Shown in pieces: positions 1-26,619 of a stretch of DNA of 35,104 bases. The translations under genes were made by a program, and so were the position numbers. Location of the stretch: UHGV virus genome UHGV-2053148, one strand, 5' to 3'. How positions within the stretch are numbered: the stretch's first letter is position 1; each line of letters begins with the position of its first letter. The notes under the pieces were generated by a model. That model was given only the letters and a program-made list of their open reading frames with translations, had not been told where the DNA came from and ran no database searches. Source of the stretch: a virus.

Positions 1-142
1 ATGAAGCCGGAGGCATCATCCCCTGTGAATGGGCTTCTTTCCGGGAATTGAGAGAAGAAGCGGAACAGGGAGGATGAAGGATAATCGACTGTCACCCATT
101 GAATCTTGATTCCGTTTCCATGAACCATTAAACTACAACCGC

Positions 143-652
143 AGGAAAAAGAAACCTACCATCAAAAGAAAACCGGGGCGGCCGAGCCTCTACACCGAGG
201 AACTGGCCGCCGAGATAGCCTCCCGCCTGGCCAACGGGGAAACCATGAAATCCATCTGCTCCGATGACCACATGCCGGATGTTTTAACTGTCTGGAGATG
301 GAGACACGAGCGGGAAGATTTTTGTAAACTCATTCAACGCGCGCGGGAAGCGCAATCGGAAGCCATGCTTGACGCCTGCCAGGAGCTGGCCGACGAGGCC
401 GCGAAAGTCGCCCTCGACCCGGAATGCGGCTCCGCTGCTGTCGCCGCCAAAAAGCTGGCCATTGAAACGCGGTTGAAAGTCGCCGCCCGATTCGCGCCGG
501 AAAAATTCGGCGACCGGGTCCGTCAGGATGTCGCCGGCGTTCCCGGCGCGCCGCTGGAACGGAAAATCACCCTGGACCCCGAGCAGCTGGCCCAGCTGCA
601 GGAAGACGAGAAAACCGCGCTGGAAACCATCGCCGGCAAACTCCACGCTTAA
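143..652 (+). CDS. Terminase small subunit (DNA-packaging protein). The first canonical start is ATG 245, but the conserved N-terminus is encoded upstream of it. Proposed AGG start at 143.
   Basis: Translating the same frame upstream of ATG 245 gives KKKPTIKRKPGRPSLYTEELAAEIASRLANGETMKSICSDDHMPDVLTVWRW. This is the hallmark HTH N-terminus of this small-terminase family (GRPS.YT.EL...I..RLA.GE). There is no ATG/GTG/TTG in frame between the TGA at 107-109 and 245. An in-frame CAGG lies at 142-145, with an AACCATT motif 13 nt upstream. Confidence 0.75.
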   Translation, partial: RKKKPTIKRKPGRPSLYTEELAAEIASRLANGETMKSICSDDHMPDVLTVWRWRHEREDFCKLIQRAREAQSEAMLDACQELADEAAKVALDPECGSAAVAAKKLAIETRLKVAARFAPEKFGDRVRQDVAGVPGAPLERKITLDPEQLAQLQEDEKTALETIAGKLHA

Positions 653-658
653 CAGACC

Positions 659-2032
659 AGGACACGCCTCCCCGTCAGCTTCTTCCTCCGCCATGTCCTC
701 CGCCTGGATCCCTATCCCTGGCAGGTGGAGGCCATCAAGGCGTTGTCCCTCGGCAAGCTGACCCTGGGAGGGAAAAGCGTGGCTCTGGTCGCTCCCAACG
801 GATCCGGCAAGACGAGCAACTGCATCGCTCCGGCCATCCTGTACTTCCTCACCTACTTCCCGCGGGGGCAGGTTCCGGTCACGTCATCGTCGTGGATGCA
901 GGTGGAAAAGCAGCTCTTTCCCGCGCTCCGCCGCTACATGGACAACCCTTTCTTTGACGGCTGGACATTCAACAAAACCGAGATTCGCACGCCGGAGGGA
1001 GGCTTTGCCGTGGGCTTCTCGACCGACAACGCCGGCCGCGCGGAAGGATGGCACCCGAAAATCTCGCCCGACGTGGACCCCGTCTTTTACGTCCTCGACG
1101 AGGCTAAAACCATCCCGGACTCCATCTTCACCGCCGTTTCCCGCTGCACGCTCTTTCACGCGTTCATCACCTCGTCGCCTGGTGCCGATTCCGGCACCTT
1201 CTACGATTGCTTTCACAAAAATTCATCCCTCTACTACAAAATCCGCGTCAAATACGAGGATTGCCCGCACATTGAAATCAACGACCCGGGCAAGGCCGAA
1301 CGACTGAAAAAAGAATACGGAGAGCAGTCCTCCTTCTATCGCTCGGCCATCCTCGGCGAATTTACTGACCTTGATGGACAATCCGTCATTTCCCGGCGCT
1401 CTCTCATGGAGCTGGTCAACAACCCGCCTCCCTTCCTGGACACCGGAGAGACCTGCGGCGGCTTTGACTTCGCGGCCGGAGGCGACGAAAACGTCTTCGC
1501 GGCGGGACAGGGCAATCGTTTTTTCATCGCCGACCACTGGGCCGACCCGGACACCGTAGGAGCGCGCGGACGTTTCCGCCGGAAGGCCGCCGAGCTCGGC
1601 ATCTCCGCCGACCGCATCTTTGCCGACGGCGACGGCCTGGGGCTCCCCATCATTGACGACTTCCGCGCCGAGGGCTTTCCGGTGCACTCCTACCGGGGAG
1701 GCTTTCCGGCGGATGACACACAAGCCTTTGTCAACCTGCGCGCCCAGGCATGGCGGGCCCTGGCACGCGCCATCGAGGAAAAAGAACTCATCCTCGACAT
1801 TGACGAGGATACGATTGAACAGCTTGTGGCGCCCCGAATCCAAACCGACGCAATAGGCCGCGTCCGAATTGAGAGCAAGGAAGATATGGCGAAACGGGGC
1901 GTTCGCTCCCCAGACCGGGCTGACGCCCTCGTCATGGCCTGGCACGCGCGCCGGAACAGCGGACTGGCGCGGACGCTTGGAGCCTGGTACGCCCGGCCCG
2001 TGTCATCAAAACGCGCTTACGGAAGATATTAG
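659..2032 (+). CDS. Terminase large subunit (ATPase plus nuclease). The ORF-track start is GTG 725; the conserved LDPYPWQ motif begins upstream, so an AGG start at 659 is proposed.
   Basis: Walker A VALVAPNGSGKT, Walker B FYVLDEAKTI, nuclease motifs (FDFAAGGDENVFAAG ... SPDRADALVMAW). Same frame as terS, separated only by TAA 650-652. GTG 725 would cut through the PYPWQVEAI motif. CAGG at 658-661. Confidence 0.85.
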   Translation, partial: RTRLPVSFFLRHVLRLDPYPWQVEAIKALSLGKLTLGGKSVALVAPNGSGKTSNCIAPAILYFLTYFPRGQVPVTSSSWMQVEKQLFPALRRYMDNPFFDGWTFNKTEIRTPEGGFAVGFSTDNAGRAEGWHPKISPDVDPVFYVLDEAKTIPDSIFTAVSRCTLFHAFITSSPGADSGTFYDCFHKNSSLYYKIRVKYEDCPHIEINDPGKAERLKKEYGEQSSFYRSAILGEFTDLDGQSVISRRSLMELVNNPPPFLDTGETCGGFDFAAGGDENVFAAGQGNRFFIADHWADPDTVGARGRFRRKAAELGISADRIFADGDGLGLPIIDDFRAEGFPVHSYRGGFPADDTQAFVNLRAQAWRALARAIEEKELILDIDEDTIEQLVAPRIQTDAIGRVRIESKEDMAKRGVRSPDRADALVMAWHARRNSGLARTLGAWYARPVSSKRAYGRY

Positions 2033-5081: not shown

Positions 5082-5241
5082 CTATTAACCCCAACCAACA
5101 GAAAGACCAAGAACAAGGGCTACTCCATTTTGCTCCGCCGTTCAGTTCACCGATGTCCTGACCTCCTATTCCGCGGGGTCCGGCAACACTGAAGAGAACT
5201 CCATCATCAGCCGCATCGCTCCGATCGTCCCGGTCTATGAC

Positions 5242-6042
5242 ATGAATTTTCAGTATAAGGTCTGGGACAAGAAAGCGGCCTTCACCGTCCAGCCCATCCA
5301 GGTGGGACCGGGCGAATCTCCCCGCCAGACCGTCCTGCGCGGAAGAAACGAAACAGACACCCTTCAGGGCTACGGCTTGACGCTGCCCATCCCTGACGCC
5401 TTGCTGGGCGTCAACCGGGAAAAGGCGCAGGCCATCACCCTGGCGGAATACAAACTCATCGAATCCCAGTTTGTGACGTCGTACGAATACGAACGCGCCA
5501 AGCTTCTGATGAGCCAGCTTCCGGCCGCTTCCGGGATGGGCGACTGGGCCAACCAGCAGAAAAACCCGTTGGCGGATCTGGACCAGGCGATCCTGTCCAT
5601 CAATGCCGCAACCGGACACATGCCGAACACGATTGTCTTCGGCATCAACGCATGGCAGCTGCTTCGCTCCAACACGCTCGCGCGTCAGGTGGTTTCCTTC
5701 AACAGCGTCGGCCTGTTCAACGAAGACCTGCTTCGCATGGCGCTGATCCGTCCCATCCGGGATATTTACATCGCCTCCATGCCGTACCGCGACGCTTCCG
5801 GCGACGCGAAAACCATCATGGAAAACGAAGTCTATGTCTTATACAAGGAAGATTCCCCGACGCAGTTCGACGCCTCCGCCGTCAAAACCTTCGGGCTTTC
5901 CGGCAAGCTTCGCCGCGAAGTCATCACCGAATACAAGCCGACGCCGGCCTTGACGCTCGTCACCAACCGGGTCTACTCGCTGACCAAGCTGACCAACCCC
6001 GGCGCCATCATCCGCATCGACGCGACGGCCTCCTCCGATTAA
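5242..6042 (+). CDS. Major capsid protein (Mu T-like / HK97 fold)
   Basis: 266-aa protein placed after protease/scaffold in a Mu-like head module. Canonical ATG start. The upstream in-frame region is Pro/Arg-rich and non-coding-like. Confidence 0.7.
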   Translation: MNFQYKVWDKKAAFTVQPIQVGPGESPRQTVLRGRNETDTLQGYGLTLPIPDALLGVNREKAQAITLAEYKLIESQFVTSYEYERAKLLMSQLPAASGMGDWANQQKNPLADLDQAILSINAATGHMPNTIVFGINAWQLLRSNTLARQVVSFNSVGLFNEDLLRMALIRPIRDIYIASMPYRDASGDAKTIMENEVYVLYKEDSPTQFDASAVKTFGLSGKLRREVITEYKPTPALTLVTNRVYSLTKLTNPGAIIRIDATASSD

Positions 6043-9141: not shown

Positions 9142-9335
9142 GCAAAGCAACTGCAGCCAACACCGAACCGGAGAAGAAGACGGAGCAGGCCGCCGTCATC
9201 GACACGAAGATCCGTTTTCTCGCAAGGAAAACACATATAGGGCGTTCAACGTTCTTGAAAGGAGCCGAAATCCGTGTTACGAAAGAACTCGCCGATAAGC
9301 TGGAAGCCGACGGCAAGGCAACCATCATCTACTAA
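9138..9335 (+). CDS. Hypothetical small protein (65 aa)
   Basis: ATGA coupling. Lys-rich. Confidence 0.3.
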   Translation: MSKATAANTEPEKKTEQAAVIDTKIRFLARKTHIGRSTFLKGAEIRVTKELADKLEADGKATIIY

Positions 9336-9442
9336 CCATTTCAAGCATCAGGGCAACTACATACGATCCCACCTTTACCAACCGCAATGTAACGCCGCAG
9401 ATTACCGGCGTTCTGGCTATTTTCCTCCCCGACGGCATCAAA

Positions 9443-10000
9443 GTGACCGAGGATGAGGGAGCCTCTTACGTTACCGGCCCCGGGCAATATCCGGAGCCTC
9501 CCGCCAATCCTCCGACCGATCCGACCGCCGGTCCGGAAGCGCCCTGGGTGAGTTTCGGGCTGTTGGGCGCGTTCCAGTCCGTCGCCACACAGGTTGAAGG
9601 GGAAGTAACGCGCTTTTACGGCGGCAATCTCGGCTACCGGCAGCAGCGCAAGAACACGACCACCGGCAAGCGGTTGACGTTCACCACGCCGGACATGTCC
9701 CCGGAATATTTCCAACTGGCGTTCGCGCTGGGAGCTGCCCCCGCCAACGGAGAGGAATCGACCACCGTCGGCCATGGCGGGGATAATAAAATTTCCGGCC
9801 ATATCCGTTTCTGGTATCAGAACGACGTGGGGACGGTGTACTTGACGGGCGTGGCGCACGGAGATTTGCGCCTCCTGCAGGACCCCGAACACACCACGGC
9901 GATCGCTTCACCCCAGTTCGAGTTCGAAATGGATTACCGCGGCGACTACAATTTCACGCCTTCCAATGTGCAGGACGTGACGCCGACGCCGGGTTCCTGA
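9443..10000 (+). CDS. Putative major tail (tube) protein. ORF-track start is GTG 9443; an alternative in-frame CAGG start at 9350 is preceded by AACCATT.
   Basis: 185-aa beta-rich protein after the connector genes, followed by a strong terminator (typical for abundant tail tube genes). The upstream in-frame stretch MATTYDPTFTNRNVTPQITGVLAIFLPDGIKV looks coding. Confidence 0.4.
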   Translation: MTEDEGASYVTGPGQYPEPPANPPTDPTAGPEAPWVSFGLLGAFQSVATQVEGEVTRFYGGNLGYRQQRKNTTTGKRLTFTTPDMSPEYFQLAFALGAAPANGEESTTVGHGGDNKISGHIRFWYQNDVGTVYLTGVAHGDLRLLQDPEHTTAIASPQFEFEMDYRGDYNFTPSNVQDVTPTPGS

Positions 10001-10001
10001 C

Positions 10002-12059
10002 GTGTTTCACCAGGGGGCGCGCTGCGCCCCCGCATCCTCTTTTTTTCCCAGGCAGCAGGCAGGCAAATACGATATCCGGACCGTCACGGGGCTGAACCAG
10101 TCGCTGGTCGTCCGTGTGGTAGATTTTCAGGGGGATCCCGTGGACATGAGCGGCGTCACCCTGCGCGGCGCTGTCCGTCTCAAGACGGGCGTCGCCGAGT
10201 TCGGCTTTTCCCGCGATGACGAGGGTAACGGCGTGCTTTCCTGGGCTTCGGTGCCTGCGGGCAGGTGGTCCTACGACGTCTTCATGGACGACGGAAACGA
10301 GGAAAGTCCGCTGCTCTACGGCTGCTTTGTTTCTGCGGGCCGGGTGACGCCGGACTTGCCCGACGAACAGCAGGCCGTGGCGGGCGCGGTCGTCGTGCAG
10401 CTGCCGGAAGGAAGCGGCTGCGTGCAGGTCATGCTTGACAACGCGTCCAGCGCCGCCTGGTACGCGGAACAGGCCAAAAAGTACGCCGAGAATTTTAATC
10501 TGTCCGTGGGTCAGGTCACCACCGGGGAACCGGGGACGCCCGCCAACGCGGAAGCCGTCAAGGGAACTGAATCAGGATCCTATCTGCTCAATTTCACGAT
10601 TCCCCGCGGGGATGTTGGTCCTCAGGGACCGTCAGGCCCGCAGGGTGAACGGGGTGAAACCGGCCCCGAAGGGCCGCAAGGCCCACGCGGCGAAACCGGG
10701 GAACGTGGACCTCAGGGAGATACGGGCGAGCAGGGACCGAAGGGAGAGACAGGCCCGGCGGGGCCCCAAGGCCCGGAGGGCCCCCAGGGGCCGGAAGGTC
10801 CGGCAGGACCCCAGGGACCACAAGGGGAAAAGGGAGAGCCCGGGACGCTGACGTCCAACGTCGGCGACGTCAACATCGGGGGAGCCCTGACCGCTGAATC
10901 GGCTACTATCAACGGGCCTCTGGTCGTCAACAACCCGGACGGAAGCGGAAGCGCCGGAACCCTGAATCAGATTTACGGAATCACCAGGTTTTATCAGTCC
11001 GTTGATCTTCGTTCGGGCGGCTGGCTGCGCGGGACATTCATGGTAGAGACCGGCATCCTGAATATTTCCCAGGGCGCCAGCTTCAACTGCGCGGGGGCGG
11101 CCACGTTCTCAAGCGCCGTCAACGCCAACGGCGGCATCAACATCCCGCTTGCCGCGGGCGCGCCGGCCAATGAATCCGGCGTCAACCGGCTTTATGCGGC
11201 GGGCATGGGAGGCGCGGCCAATACTTATACGGCAGGGGCGTTTCTGAATACGGACTCCCTGACCACGACCGGGACGGCCACGGTTACTAAAACGGTTCCC
11301 TGGCAGATGGCCCGCATCGGTATTCCCGCGGGATCTCACACAACCATTCAGGCTCCCTTTGAAGGACCCTCTTCCCAATGGAATTACTCTTCCTGGGCCG
11401 GCTTTTCGTTTGTCTGGCGGGCTACCGCCGCCGCAAAGCTGACGATGGGCATCGGACGCGGAGCGAAAACAATCAGGACGGACCTCACCACGGATTCCTA
11501 CACGATCATTCCGGGGAATGGCCTGGCCTTTAATTCCGGGGAGATTCTGGACATCACCTTTGACAATGTGAGAGACACGGCCCGCAACGGCTACACGGTG
11601 CGGGTGCGTGAGATTTACGCGCTCAACTCCACGGATGGGTGGCAGGTCAAGACGACGACCAGCTTTATTCCCGCGACGCAGAACGAGCCCATCCCGTGGA
11701 CGGTCTGCAAGATTATTTACCAGCAGCAGGCGGTTGCCAACAGCAGCGTTTATGAAAACCTGGGAGGGCTCTGGCTGATGGTCACGGGAGCGCAAACCAA
11801 TAATCTGTACAAAATCGCCACTTGCCGCGGCGTCTCCAATTTTGAGACCGGCGTCGGCGTTTCCCGGTGGGTGACGGACGTGATCAACATCACCAGCGGA
11901 ACGGCTTCCGTTTACGCCGGGCCCGGCGAATATGCCTATTACCAGCCGGGGAATATCAACCCGCTTTTCTACGGGTTGGACGCGATAGGAACGAATGCCG
12001 TTGAATCCGAGGAAACCGCAGCTTTTGAAGATATTAACGTACCCATTGAAGAATCATGA
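10002..12059 (+). CDS. Tail fiber protein with collagen-like triple-helix repeats. The true start is probably downstream of the terminator (CAGG 10050 or ATG 10146).
   Basis: 26 consecutive G-X-Y triplets ([76 protein letters not shown]). C-terminal beta-rich receptor-binding region. Confidence 0.8.
10013..10046 (+). terminator. Rho-independent terminator or attenuator (8-bp GC stem GGGGGCGC/GCGCCCCC, loop GCT, then TCTTTTTTT)
   Basis: Perfect 8-bp GC stem at 10013-10031 followed by a T7 run at 10040-10046. It lies inside the ORF-track N-terminal extension of the fiber gene. Confidence 0.6.
10608..10844 (+). repeat. Collagen-like (Gly-X-Y)n coding repeat inside the tail fiber gene
   Basis: About 79 codons of GXY. 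Gives a GGNCCN-periodic DNA repeat and spurious ORFs on both strands. Confidence 0.8.
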
Positions 12060-13330: not shown

Positions 13331-13395
13331 CCAACTGTAAAGTTTTTCTTACAAGTTCAACAATATTAACAATCAACCATTAAAGGAGAATAATC

Positions 13396-13926
13396 AGGAA
13401 AATAGCCATTGATATAGGCCACGCCAACAACACCGGAACCCGCGGAAACGGGCTTGAAGAACACGCCGTCGTCACGACTATCGCCGAACGCCTCGCCCCC
13501 ATGCTGGAACGGCTGGGAGCCCGGGTGGACGTGATTGACTTCCCCAAGATGACCAATGCCCAGGACTTGAGCGATACCATCAAGGCCGCCAACGAAGGAG
13601 GCTATGACTTCGGAATTTCATTGCATTGCGATTCGGCCGACAATCCCCAGGCTCATGGCGCTCATGTATGTTTCTACCCGGGAAGCGTTAAAGGAAGCCG
13701 GCTTGCCATATGCATCGCGGAACCTCTTTCCCGGCTGCTGCCCGGACGGGCCAACACTGTGCAGTCGCGCCCGGGACTGGCCGTCCTGAAAAAGACCCGC
13801 TGTCCGTGGGTGCTCTGCGAATGCGGCTTCATCACCAATCCTGAAAACGCCTCTATTTTGAAGGACCATCCCGGACGCATTGCCGAAGCCATTGCGGAAG
13901 GGGTGAAGGACTACCTCAACCAGTAA
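13396..13926 (+). CDS. N-acetylmuramoyl-L-alanine amidase (Amidase_3) endolysin. The first ATG (13501) is internal; proposed AGG start at 13396 with a perfect SD.
   Basis: The upstream in-frame stretch encodes KIAIDIGHANNTGTRGNGLEEHAVVTTIAERLAPMLERLGARVDVIDF, the conserved Zn-binding N-terminal core of Amidase_3. Only TAA 13381-13383 lies upstream of it. AAGGAG at 13383-13388, a 7-nt spacer, then CAGG at 13395-13398. The C-terminus carries amidase motifs (VLCECGFITN). Confidence 0.85.
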   Translation, partial: RKIAIDIGHANNTGTRGNGLEEHAVVTTIAERLAPMLERLGARVDVIDFPKMTNAQDLSDTIKAANEGGYDFGISLHCDSADNPQAHGAHVCFYPGSVKGSRLAICIAEPLSRLLPGRANTVQSRPGLAVLKKTRCPWVLCECGFITNPENASILKDHPGRIAEAIAEGVKDYLNQ

Positions 13927-18280: not shown

Positions 18281-18331
18281 ACCACTAACCATTTTACAAG
18301 CAGCAGGAACCACGACATCACCATCAATGAC

Positions 18332-20488
18332 TTGCTGGGCCTCAAGCCGTCGAGCCTGACCCACGACCAGCAAAGCTTTTCCGCCTCCGCCATCACCGCG
18401 GTTTATCCCGTCCGCACCTTGGGCGAGGTCTTGCCCTTCCAACAGTTCGACACTGTCACCATTTCCCAAAACGGGAACACCATTCTTTCCGGTCTCGTTT
18501 CCAGCATCGAAAAGACCTACAGCGGCTCTTCCCGTGCGTGGAAAATCGTCTTTTCCGACCCCTGGTATTGGCTGGACAACTGCTTTGCGCTGGATTCCGA
18601 ATGGAAGCCGGTCTTTTCCATGTGGAATAAAGTCAGCGGAGGGGGCGGCATCATTCCGAAGATAAGCATTTCCTCCGCGCTCTCCCGGGTGCTGAACCTT
18701 GCCAAACACCACCCGGCGGACTACGAGCTGCGTATCAGCGACGACAAGATGCTGATTCCGTGGAACGCCTCCTGCGATACGCTGGGCAGCCTCCTTCAAT
18801 CCATCCGCCGCTGGTCGCCCCGGATGGTCTCGTACTACGACTACAGCGGAGCGCGCCCCAAGCTCATCATCACGGACTATGACGCCCTGACGCCCATTGC
18901 GCTTCCCTTGCAGCCGACGGAAACGGTCAAGTCCATGGACGTCTCCCTGATCCCCCGGGGCGACCTCGTTCCGCCCTGCGTGGCTATCGTCGCGGAAACG
19001 ACCGGCAGCAACGGCTACCGCGTCTCCTACCTGTCCAAATACCCGGAAGACGGGGACCCGACCTTGCCGCACTCCATTGTTTACCGAACGTCAGTAGACT
19101 TCTACTACTCCAAATACAGTTCTACGGGGGAGCCGGTAGAAGATCCGCAGCCGGTGCAGGGCACCAGGGCCGGCAGCCTGTCTTACCAGCGCATGAAAGT
19201 GACGGGGACCAGGATTGACCAGAACGACATGATCAACAGTTTCTGGAAACATCATTTCCCGTGGATGAAAGATGTAGGAGCAATCGCCGTCTATGACCAG
19301 GATCCGACCATCACCGGGAAGCCCTGGGACGGAACGGAGGAAGACAAGCCGCGAGGCTACAACACCGCCGCCACAGGCTATGAACTGACGGACGGGCAAA
19401 TTCATACCAAATCCATCCGCCCGCAATGGTGCAACGCCACCGTCAAGCAGCGTCTTGCCATCCCGGAAAGCGCCCCGGCCAAGTGGAGGGAGAAATTCAA
19501 GAATGTGGGAACGCTGCAAGGCGTGCCCTGCTTCTGGGAAGAATTCTCGGTGGATCTGGTCACCATGGACCGCCCCTACGCGAGCTACCCCATTGACGGC
19601 ATCTACAACGGGGAACAGCCCTCCAACGGTCCGGAAGAAGGGGAATCGCCGGAACCGTCGGAAGGAGTGCCCTATGGGGACATTGCGAAAACGGTCTGGG
19701 AATCCATGCAGGAATTGCCGTGGGACGGCTCTATTTCCTTTGTCGCGCTGGGAGAAGCGCAGACGCGGCAATACATGGGCCGCCGCGTCTCGCTGCTGGG
19801 AGGAAACCCCGCCTGGCAGAACATCAACACCATGATTCAGACTGTTTCGCGCGACCTGCAGACCAACGTGATTTCCCTGTCCTACGGCGCGCCGGAACAA
19901 CTAGGGATTGAAGAATGGGTAGAATTGAAGCGCGTGAATGCTACGTCACGCAGATCCTCCACGCTGGAAAACATGCAGGGGGCGCCGGAATCGACGGAAT
20001 ACGGCTTTGACCCCAAGCCGGAATCCCCTACCATCAGCCAGCATATCACCAAATCCACCGGAGAATCCACGCCCGCGCCGGAATACGGCTTCCAGGTGCG
20101 CTTGCAGAAAGATACGGAGGGAGCCATCACCGGGGCGCAGATGAAGCCCGGCGCGCTCTACCTGAACGGCTCGCTGCTCGGCAAATACCCGCAGGGGGGC
20201 GGTTCCGGTTCCTCGTGGGTAACTATCCCCCAAACCAGCGGGGAAGTATGGCTCAACGTCCACTTTGACAAGAACGCCAAATTGACGGGCGTGGATGTCT
20301 CGGGCATCCCGGGCCCAGTCTATCCGATTCCTCTTATGGACTACTCTTTAGGAGAGCCTCCTGATCTCAACTACGATTATGCTTTTCAAATTGCCGACAT
20401 TGAAGACGACCAGGTGACGCAGTACGCGCTGGGCATGATTCAGGTACCCGTCTTCGGAGGCACCTTCTACCCTTACGGACCAGCTTAA
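18332..20488 (+). CDS. Large distal tail / baseplate / host-specificity protein. ORF-track start is TTG 18332; an alternative CAGG start at 18305 is preceded by AACCATT.
   Basis: 718-aa beta-rich protein after the TMP region. The upstream motif is near-identical to the one before the tail tube gene. Confidence 0.45.
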   Translation: MLGLKPSSLTHDQQSFSASAITAVYPVRTLGEVLPFQQFDTVTISQNGNTILSGLVSSIEKTYSGSSRAWKIVFSDPWYWLDNCFALDSEWKPVFSMWNKVSGGGGIIPKISISSALSRVLNLAKHHPADYELRISDDKMLIPWNASCDTLGSLLQSIRRWSPRMVSYYDYSGARPKLIITDYDALTPIALPLQPTETVKSMDVSLIPRGDLVPPCVAIVAETTGSNGYRVSYLSKYPEDGDPTLPHSIVYRTSVDFYYSKYSSTGEPVEDPQPVQGTRAGSLSYQRMKVTGTRIDQNDMINSFWKHHFPWMKDVGAIAVYDQDPTITGKPWDGTEEDKPRGYNTAATGYELTDGQIHTKSIRPQWCNATVKQRLAIPESAPAKWREKFKNVGTLQGVPCFWEEFSVDLVTMDRPYASYPIDGIYNGEQPSNGPEEGESPEPSEGVPYGDIAKTVWESMQELPWDGSISFVALGEAQTRQYMGRRVSLLGGNPAWQNINTMIQTVSRDLQTNVISLSYGAPEQLGIEEWVELKRVNATSRRSSTLENMQGAPESTEYGFDPKPESPTISQHITKSTGESTPAPEYGFQVRLQKDTEGAITGAQMKPGALYLNGSLLGKYPQGGGSGSSWVTIPQTSGEVWLNVHFDKNAKLTGVDVSGIPGPVYPIPLMDYSLGEPPDLNYDYAFQIADIEDDQVTQYALGMIQVPVFGGTFYPYGPA

Positions 20489-26488: not shown

Positions 26489-26619
26489 CTGACTTTTAAC
26501 CAATCGCCCGGCCCAGGTGGGGCCTAAAACCAAAACCAAAACATCAATAGGTATATAGAGTAATACGGTCTGGCAGGCGCGGGGAAACCCGTCCGGGCGG
26601 CCAATTCAGAAGAACGAAC

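Follow-up and report, generated by a model that had tools for sequence, protein, structure and literature searches.

The virus genome UHGV-2053148, a stretch of 35,104 nucleotides (nt) that is referred to here as the window, belongs to a Mu-head-type temperate Akkermansia phage. It encodes a small terminase subunit (TerS) whose conserved domain begins upstream of the first canonical start codon in its frame, ATG245. We put a probability of roughly 0.7 on the reading that the codon AGG is the start codon of at least eight late genes of this phage, TerS included, and that it is read by a dedicated phage-encoded, initiator-like transfer RNA (tRNA) with the anticodon CCU, termed tRNA(CCU); this assessment comes from comparative sequence analysis. 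On balance we also favor a wider proposal, in which a lineage of temperate Akkermansia phages has reassigned the arginine codon AGG to initiate its genes for packaging, capsid, tail, and lysis and carries the matching initiator tRNA(CCU), so that late proteins would probably begin with a residue other than methionine and late synthesis would be gated on, or insulated by, the tRNA. The unusual aspect of the system is initiation rather than the TerS protein, and natural reassignment of a start codon of this kind is unreported in the literature that we found.

The structural genes of the window are 90.5% identical to those of Akkermansia phage DTMo-2021a, relative to which the window is circularly permuted. 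Positions 1 to 41 of the window do not align with DTMo-2021a, and conservation is poor upstream of approximately position 74. For comparison, about 50 related loci were collected by a scan of IMG/VR and by look-ups of database proteins.

Coding sequence upstream of ATG245 in the small terminase gene

143..652, + strand: TerS coding sequence (CDS), Sf6 gp1 type; proposed AGG start at 143-145, stop TAA at 650-652, 169 amino acids (aa)

The sequence-only reading of the window had proposed that the characteristic N terminus of TerS, with its helix-turn-helix (HTH) motif, lies upstream of the first ATG. The frame of ATG245 is indeed closed by TGA at 107-109 and has no ATG, GTG, or TTG between 110 and 244, and its translation ahead of the methionine reads FRFHEPLNYNRRKKKPTIKRKPGRPSLYTEELAAEIASRLANGET-M(245), the TerS frame upstream of ATG245 thus encoding ...RRKKKPTIKRKPGRPSLYTEELAAEIASRLANGET. 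When the extended translation was searched against hidden Markov models, as that reading had suggested, it matched Pfam PF20901 (Sf6_terminase) with 101.9 bits (cutoff, 27; E = 2.6e-29) over profile positions 1-105 of 106, and profile position 1 fell on the tyrosine at 191-193, 18 codons before ATG245. Matches were also obtained to PHROG1482 (E = 4.9e-33) and to the solved structure of Sf6 gp1 (3HEF; E = 1e-19 over residues 8-139). Counting AGG143 as codon 1, the PHROG1482 and 3HEF alignments begin at residue 5-8, and residue 7 of Sf6 gp1 aligns to TerS residue 8. The N-terminal HTH domain begins within the residues encoded by 143-244; the expectation that this segment starts no more than about 10 residues from the N terminus is borne out only with an AGG143 start, and a protein begun at ATG245 loses it. 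The frame of the large terminase subunit (TerL) begins 6 nt past the TerS stop, in the order expected for an Sf6 gp1-type small terminase. TerS is therefore an ordinary member of that type (PF20901; PDB 3HEF), in which the start codon alone is unusual.

Across the 23 codons from the GRPS motif to the codon before ATG245, the ratio of nonsynonymous to synonymous substitution rates (dN/dS) was 0.08 among 26 unique sequences, and a 6-nt in-frame indel just upstream is tolerated in relatives, which together argue that this segment is translated in the TerS frame. It is conceivable that TerS nevertheless starts at ATG245, the preceding 102 nt being untranslated or a decaying remnant and the protein lacking the first helix of its DNA-binding domain. 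ATG245 is invariant, and gene callers pick it in a cluster of 460 member sequences. However, its methionine is a conserved internal residue (GETMK), the dN/dS value and the tolerated indel speak for coding upstream of it, the Pfam, PHROG, and Sf6 gp1 alignments all cover the upstream segment, and by the same reasoning the endolysin domain would lose its zinc-binding start. We consider a start at ATG245 very unlikely.

No canonical start was present upstream of GRPS in 42 of the 48 related loci, where the open frame begins just 13-24 codons before this motif; the missing start is neither a sequence error nor the mark of a pseudogene. A few loci do have an in-frame upstream ATG, and there the differences within the extension are all nonsynonymous, which argues against the extension being coding. 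In some assemblies (L043 for TerS; proteins P0008, P0011, and P0012), frameshifts inside TerS or at the TerS-TerL junction give chimeric predicted proteins; these are likely to be assembly errors or defective copies.

AGG at 143-145 with C at 142, and AACCATT at 123-129, are in place as the sequence-only reading had described, and its suggestion that AGG143 could start the protein (xKKKPTIKRKPGRPSLYT) is supported by the comparison. All 22 distinct upstream variants share AGG143 unchanged. The sequences 5' of this codon are of several unrelated types and frequently have an in-frame stop two or three codons ahead of it, and all of these types converge on C-AGG-AAA-AA, the sole invariant feature at the point where coding conservation begins. 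No other near-cognate codon is conserved in the TerS variants, and with AGG143 as codon 1 the predicted N termini come within 1-2 residues of those in the domain and structure alignments. To judge from these sequences, TerS most likely begins at AGG143 and not at ATG245, and its first residue may be one other than methionine.

Other candidates were discarded. ATC161, considered as a weak start in line with the Met/ATA of P0002, reads ACC in DTMo-2021a and in numerous further loci. An ATA just before GRPS, used ad hoc by NCBI, is confined to the L010 and L044 types. Fusion of TerS to TerL by readthrough of TAA fails in L010-type loci, whose TerS stop and TerL are in different frames.

The segment could also be reached by recoding from an open reading frame (ORF) that lies upstream, through readthrough of TGA107 from ATG74, through a frameshift or hop from a mini-ORF that shortly precedes the TerS AGG in a different frame (ATG-AAC-CAT-TAA, 120-131), or through transcriptional slippage on the A-run. 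ATG74, which is in frame, follows a GGGAGG, the start of the mini-ORF is kept as TTG in DTMo-2021a (TTG-AAC-CAG-TAA), and A AAA AAG resembles a slippery site. However, the frame of ATG74 is not conserved, a 1-nt indel in DTMo-2021a throws this ORF out of frame, and L030-type loci carry two in-frame stops. The other upstream types are unrelated and hold no consistent ORF, that of L028 being frame shifted. The geometry required for a frameshift from the mini-ORF or for slippage fails as well, since the mini-ORF stops before the A-run and the feature is missing in other upstream types. Recoding is thus highly improbable. The mini-ORF overlaps the -10 region of a promoter-like element and is probably incidental.

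AGG codons at the proposed starts of other late genes

An invariant AGG was found at the homology-defined N termini of seven further late genes:

659..2032, + strand: TerL CDS; proposed AGG start at 659-661, 6 nt past the TerS stop; 457 aa
2177..3541, + strand: Mu-type portal CDS; proposed AGG start at 2177-2179, with TTG2276 as the earliest canonical start
5116..6042, + strand: major head protein CDS; proposed AGG start at 5116-5118, with A at -1; first ATG at 5242
9350..10000, + strand: g11, structural gene counted among the tail genes; proposed AGG start at 9350, with GTG9443 as the earliest canonical start
10013..12059, + strand: g12, collagen-repeat tail fiber CDS after a terminator; proposed AGG start at 10050; matches to collagen and tail fiber families
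13383..13926, + strand: endolysin (Amidase_3) CDS; Shine-Dalgarno (SD) sequence AAGGAG at 13383-13388, 7-nt spacer, proposed AGG start at 13396; first ATG at 13501
18305..20488, + strand: g19, 727-aa late protein; proposed AGG start at 18305; first canonical start TTG18332

In TerL, the start region follows the pattern stop-xxx-xxC-AGG-xxx-xxx-CTC CCC GTC in about 27 variants, with the AGG invariant and the flanking codons variable. Relative to the TerS stop, this AGG is found in one or the other of two frames, which is a further point against recoding. TerL homologs that start with ATG are 455-465 aa long and begin with MSKPYFPVSLFF or MKIPAAWFL, a match for xTRLPVSFFL, and the most divergent member of the family (L047) has an ATG one codon downstream in place of the AGG. 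Starting at GTG725, the first canonical start, would cut off the conserved LDPYPWQ.

The portal gene has CAGG TTT AAC GCC conserved past a spacer of variable length in all loci, and its residue 36 corresponds to position 35 of the PHROG113 profile. For the major head protein, AGG is invariant in 8 unique variants, and residue 13 corresponds to position 14 of the PHROG1005 profile. The AGG of g11 is invariant in 10 unique variants with synonymous changes downstream, and C AGG CAG CAG GCA is invariant in 7 variants of the tail fiber gene. Residue 3 of the endolysin, counted from AGG13396, is position 1 of the Amidase_3 profile. The weakest case is g19, in which AGC AGC AGG AAC CAC GAC is shared with DTMo-2021a, the one relative compared. 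An invariant codon with variable flanks and with coding constraint on its downstream side only is thus seen in TerS, TerL, the portal gene, the head protein gene, g11, and g12. An SD sequence is missing at seven of the eight AGG starts, and C stands at -1 in seven of the eight.

Eleven other late genes and the early genes examined have ordinary ATG or nearby canonical starts, and no AGG start was found among those early genes. An in-frame CAGG at 26575, upstream of ATG26620 of an early gene, was rejected as noncoding (it carries a 5-nt indel relative to DTMo-2021a).

Direct interchange of AGG and ATG was seen in the endolysin gene, which is carried by 41 loci. At the codon 7 nt past the conserved TAAAGGAGAATA, about 18 loci have AGG and about 12 loci within the family have ATG; in DTMo-2021a, the position of AGG13396 is taken by ATG. 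All more distant relatives have ATG as well, at the identical codon behind the same SD sequence. Two syntenic outgroups, L131 (TerL 68% identical) and L132 (64%), are without the tRNA and have ATG, GTG, or TTG at the homologous starts. In L131, the methionine of ATG CCT AAT AAT TTT TGC.. in the major head gene aligns with AGG5116, and the portal gene has a TTG start at the equivalent place.

A start codon that is made or altered after transcription, for example by editing of AGG to AUG, or a systematic error in the DNA sequence would restore a canonical AUG; nothing direct speaks for either. The same AGG codons recur in a phage genome that comes from an isolate and in dozens of metagenome and genome assemblies that are independent of one another, and the co-occurring CCU tRNA would be left unexplained. 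We know of no G-to-U editing in bacteria. This explanation is scarcely credible.

The tail fiber start is directly preceded by a terminator:

10013-10046, + strand: intrinsic (rho-independent) terminator, hairpin and T-run, directly before AGG10050

Its stem shows compensatory changes in relatives, and GTG10002 lies upstream of it.

The phage tRNA(CCU)

2080..2153, + strand: tRNA, anticodon CCU, between TerL and the portal gene (ARAGORN; Rfam tRNA, 52.7 bits)

This tRNA (sequence CGCAGGGUGGUGAAACGGUAUCACGCGGGGUUCCUGUCCCCGAAUCGAAGGUCCAACUCCUUCCCCUGCAACCA) was the single one found in the window by ARAGORN and Rfam, and it is present in every related locus covering the site. Bacterial initiator tRNAs are distinguished by a C1xA72 mismatch, G2:C71, C3:G70, A73, and consecutive G:C pairs closing the anticodon stem. 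Like bacterial tRNAfMet (E. coli [Escherichia coli] metZ/metY), the phage tRNA has C1xA72, G2:C71, C3:G70, A73, and an encoded CCA, and G:C pairs (29-31:39-41) close the anticodon stem in the window and in most variants, two of the 19 variants having U31:G39. A single base pair separates its acceptor stem from the one in E. coli tRNAfMet; G4:C69, the E. coli type, occurs in one phage variant. Unlike bacterial tRNAfMet, it has CCU and not CAU, G37 and not the A37 of the classical initiator, U11:A24 and not A11:U24, a short D loop (7 nt), and, in most variants, an unusual T loop; it is also phage encoded and probably not charged with methionine. The CCU anticodon is invariant, which excludes tRNAfMet proper but not an initiator function.

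Among the 19 variants, 99.7% of stem positions are paired, and compensatory double changes were seen in 10 of the 20 pairs. Neither C1 nor A72 varies in any of the 19, whereas the other acceptor pairs stay paired by compensation; that the stems covary while the 1:72 mismatch never changes argues that the mismatch is under selection. An elongator tRNA-Arg(CCU) bound by EF-Tu requires a Watson-Crick 1:72 pair, which the phage tRNA lacks. A diverged tRNA(CCU) is kept in outgroup L133 (TerL 75% identical), together with C1xA72, the G:C pairs, and an AGG portal start.

The distribution of such tRNAs was scanned with two degenerate initiator-like patterns that need an encoded CCA and are strict enough that variants like that of L133 would be missed. 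These patterns matched this phage family alone in IMG/VR. In 185,579 species-representative genomes, the same strict patterns gave three chance hits, none of which was called a tRNA by ARAGORN.

The AGG codons could be real starts that are read near-cognately by the host tRNAfMet, with tRNA(CCU) being an ordinary elongator kept for codon supply, for defense evasion, or as an attachment (att) site. AGG is one position away from AUG, the U11:A24 pair is elongator-like, and a satellite-like element inserts in the neighborhood of the tRNA gene. Low-level AGG initiation is measurable in E. coli, and IF3 suppresses AGG starts read by tRNAfMet (PMC6868393); the genes concerned here, however, include those for the most abundant virion proteins. 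The invariance of C1xA72 in variants whose other stem pairs covary is also unexpected of an elongator. AGG makes up 9.4% of arginine codons in late genes compared with 16% in early genes; it is thus not enriched in the bodies of the late genes, codon supply does not explain the tRNA, and a codon-supplementation role was rejected. In addition, the outgroups without the tRNA have canonical starts at the same positions. Reading by the host initiator appears improbable to us, if less remote than the explanations weighed above.

Proposed initiation mechanism, related systems, and upstream elements

In the mechanism that we favor, in which AGG is read by the phage tRNA, tRNA(CCU) would be transcribed with or beside the late operon and then charged. 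Arginine is the likely amino acid because C35 and U36 are determinants for arginyl-tRNA synthetase (ArgRS) and methionyl-tRNA synthetase needs CAU; C35 and U36 are present in tRNA(CCU), and position 20, where the ArgRS element is A20, is apparently U, although its numbering is uncertain. Features of the tRNA body would send the charged molecule to the ribosomal P site as an initiator and not to EF-Tu, IF2 and the P site of the 30S subunit would accept it, and it may be formylated. It would then pair cognately with AGG in the P site. IF3 checks complementarity and not AUG as such, and as the pairing would be cognate, the complex should not be rejected. The C at -1 might form a pair with G37, much as A37:U(-1) has been shown to give quadruplet pairing in E. 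coli (PMC10018350). Akkermansia muciniphila is among the organisms in which SD sequences are scarce (PMC10783764), which fits their absence from seven of the eight AGG starts; in such a host, start selection would depend chiefly on the pairing of codon and anticodon within A-rich, unstructured surroundings (AGG AAA AAG AAA in TerS). The purpose may be to gate late-protein synthesis on the phage tRNA, including against leaky expression in the lysogen, or alternatively to escape host attack or toxins that cleave tRNAfMet.

Transcription of TerS may begin very close to the AGG:

106..134, + strand: promoter-like element before TerS; -35 TTGATT at 106-111, 17-nt spacer, -10 TAAACT at 129-134, ending 8 nt before AGG143

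All 22 unique TerS upstream variants have an element of the form TTGAnn-17/18-TAnnnT that finishes 6-8 nt ahead of the AGG, with a mean match of 8.4/12 compared with 6.2 +/- 0.2 for shuffled sequences. A stricter, generic sigma-70 scan called no promoter at its threshold before either TerS or the tRNA. Given the 6- to 8-nt distance, the TerS mRNA may be leaderless or near-leaderless, a point about which we are less certain.

Several observations weigh against initiation by the phage tRNA. None of the 19 variants has the initiator pair A11:U24, U11:A24 standing in its place; the T loop is odd in most of them (UCCAACU); and 2 of the 19 have A29:U41, with G30:C40 and G31:C39 kept. The putative fourth pair, G37:C(-1), does not covary cleanly: where position 37 of the tRNA is A, the C at -1 is retained, and the base at -1 of the major head gene is A. 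Basic residues are said, in work from the RajBhandary laboratory, to be poor formyltransferase substrates in E. coli, and leaderless mRNAs of E. coli reportedly need AUG itself (Van Etten and Janssen, 1998), which argues against the leaderless part of the proposal.

Reading of the AUG family by tRNAfMet(CAU) is considered a nearly universal mode of initiation, and initiator tRNAs with non-CAU anticodons are, to our knowledge, known only as engineered tools. In crAss-like and Lak phages, phage-encoded suppressor tRNAs recode stop codons. As in those phages, a phage tRNA would here give another meaning to a codon that is concentrated in the late genes for structure and lysis, and translation by the host machinery alone would fail; however, they reassign a stop codon in elongation, whereas here a sense codon would serve as a start, AGG still being read as arginine internally. 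The AUU of infC is a rare natural noncanonical start that is read by the normal tRNAfMet. The GTC start of Streptomyces sigR is likewise read by normal tRNAfMet (PMC5472188). These two resemble the phage AGG codons in being conserved starts other than ATG, GTG, or TTG, and their conservation serves regulation; unlike the phage system, they concern single genes, depend on the near-cognate host initiator, are regulated through IF3, and have no dedicated tRNA. Another close likeness is to engineered orthogonal initiation with anticodon-mutant initiator tRNAs such as the amber initiator (see also PMC11744186), within which the i-tRNA-CCU/AGG pair was the most efficient noncanonical initiation pair across E. 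coli strains (bioRxiv 10.64898/2026.04.16.719103). The principle and the codon-anticodon pair are the same, but the engineered pairs are laboratory constructs derived from metY, whereas the phage pair would have evolved naturally and become fixed in a lineage over at least eight genes. A full-text literature search returned no report of a natural initiator tRNA for AGG or with any other non-CAU anticodon, nor of AGG starts in Akkermansia phages.

Public gene calls place the starts of these genes wrongly (P0004, P0002, and P0022; L087-L089). The 460-member cluster begins TerS at the equivalent of Met245, and in NCBI records TerS is begun at ATA, TerL at an internal TTG, and the portal protein at an internal ATG. 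AGG initiation would explain why hundreds of deposited proteins from abundant human-gut Akkermansia phages are truncated or have been given ad hoc ATA starts. If the proposal is correct, the identity of the start codon can evolve and a mobile element can carry a private start codon, which would add a layer of phage gene control or counterdefense parallel to the stop codon recoding of other phages. The pair would also be a naturally optimized orthogonal initiator and start codon for synthetic biology and a tractable system in which to study how IF3, IF2, and formyltransferase handle a cognate non-AUG pair in an SD-poor bacterium.

The AACCATT motif occurs five times in the window, as many as expected by chance. 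Four of the copies precede AGG starts by 9-14 nt (123-129, 9334-9340, 13375-13381, and 18287-18293), the first of them overlapping the promoter-like element before TerS, and the fifth is at 11342-11348. The motif is kept before AGG and ATG versions of the endolysin gene alike and is missing from the other TerS upstream types.

Upstream of the tRNA, at 2035-2079, a conserved TTGACA (2035-2040) is followed by an AT-rich, partly palindromic stretch, ATATATCAACGTATCAATATAT, which may constitute the tRNA's own promoter and operator. Directly 3' of tRNA(CCU), in the place expected of the portal gene, L052 (4406-12459) carries an integrase-bearing satellite-like element, which is also found in L053, L054, and L055. 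Its cargo comprises the integrase, an Sf6-type TerS paralog with an ATG start (P0014), pRha, and a Toprim primase. The element has its own diverged, full-length tRNA(CCU) (L052, 7094-7167), in which C1xA72 is kept and which has a similar TTGACA box; this copy presumably taps the same initiation system.

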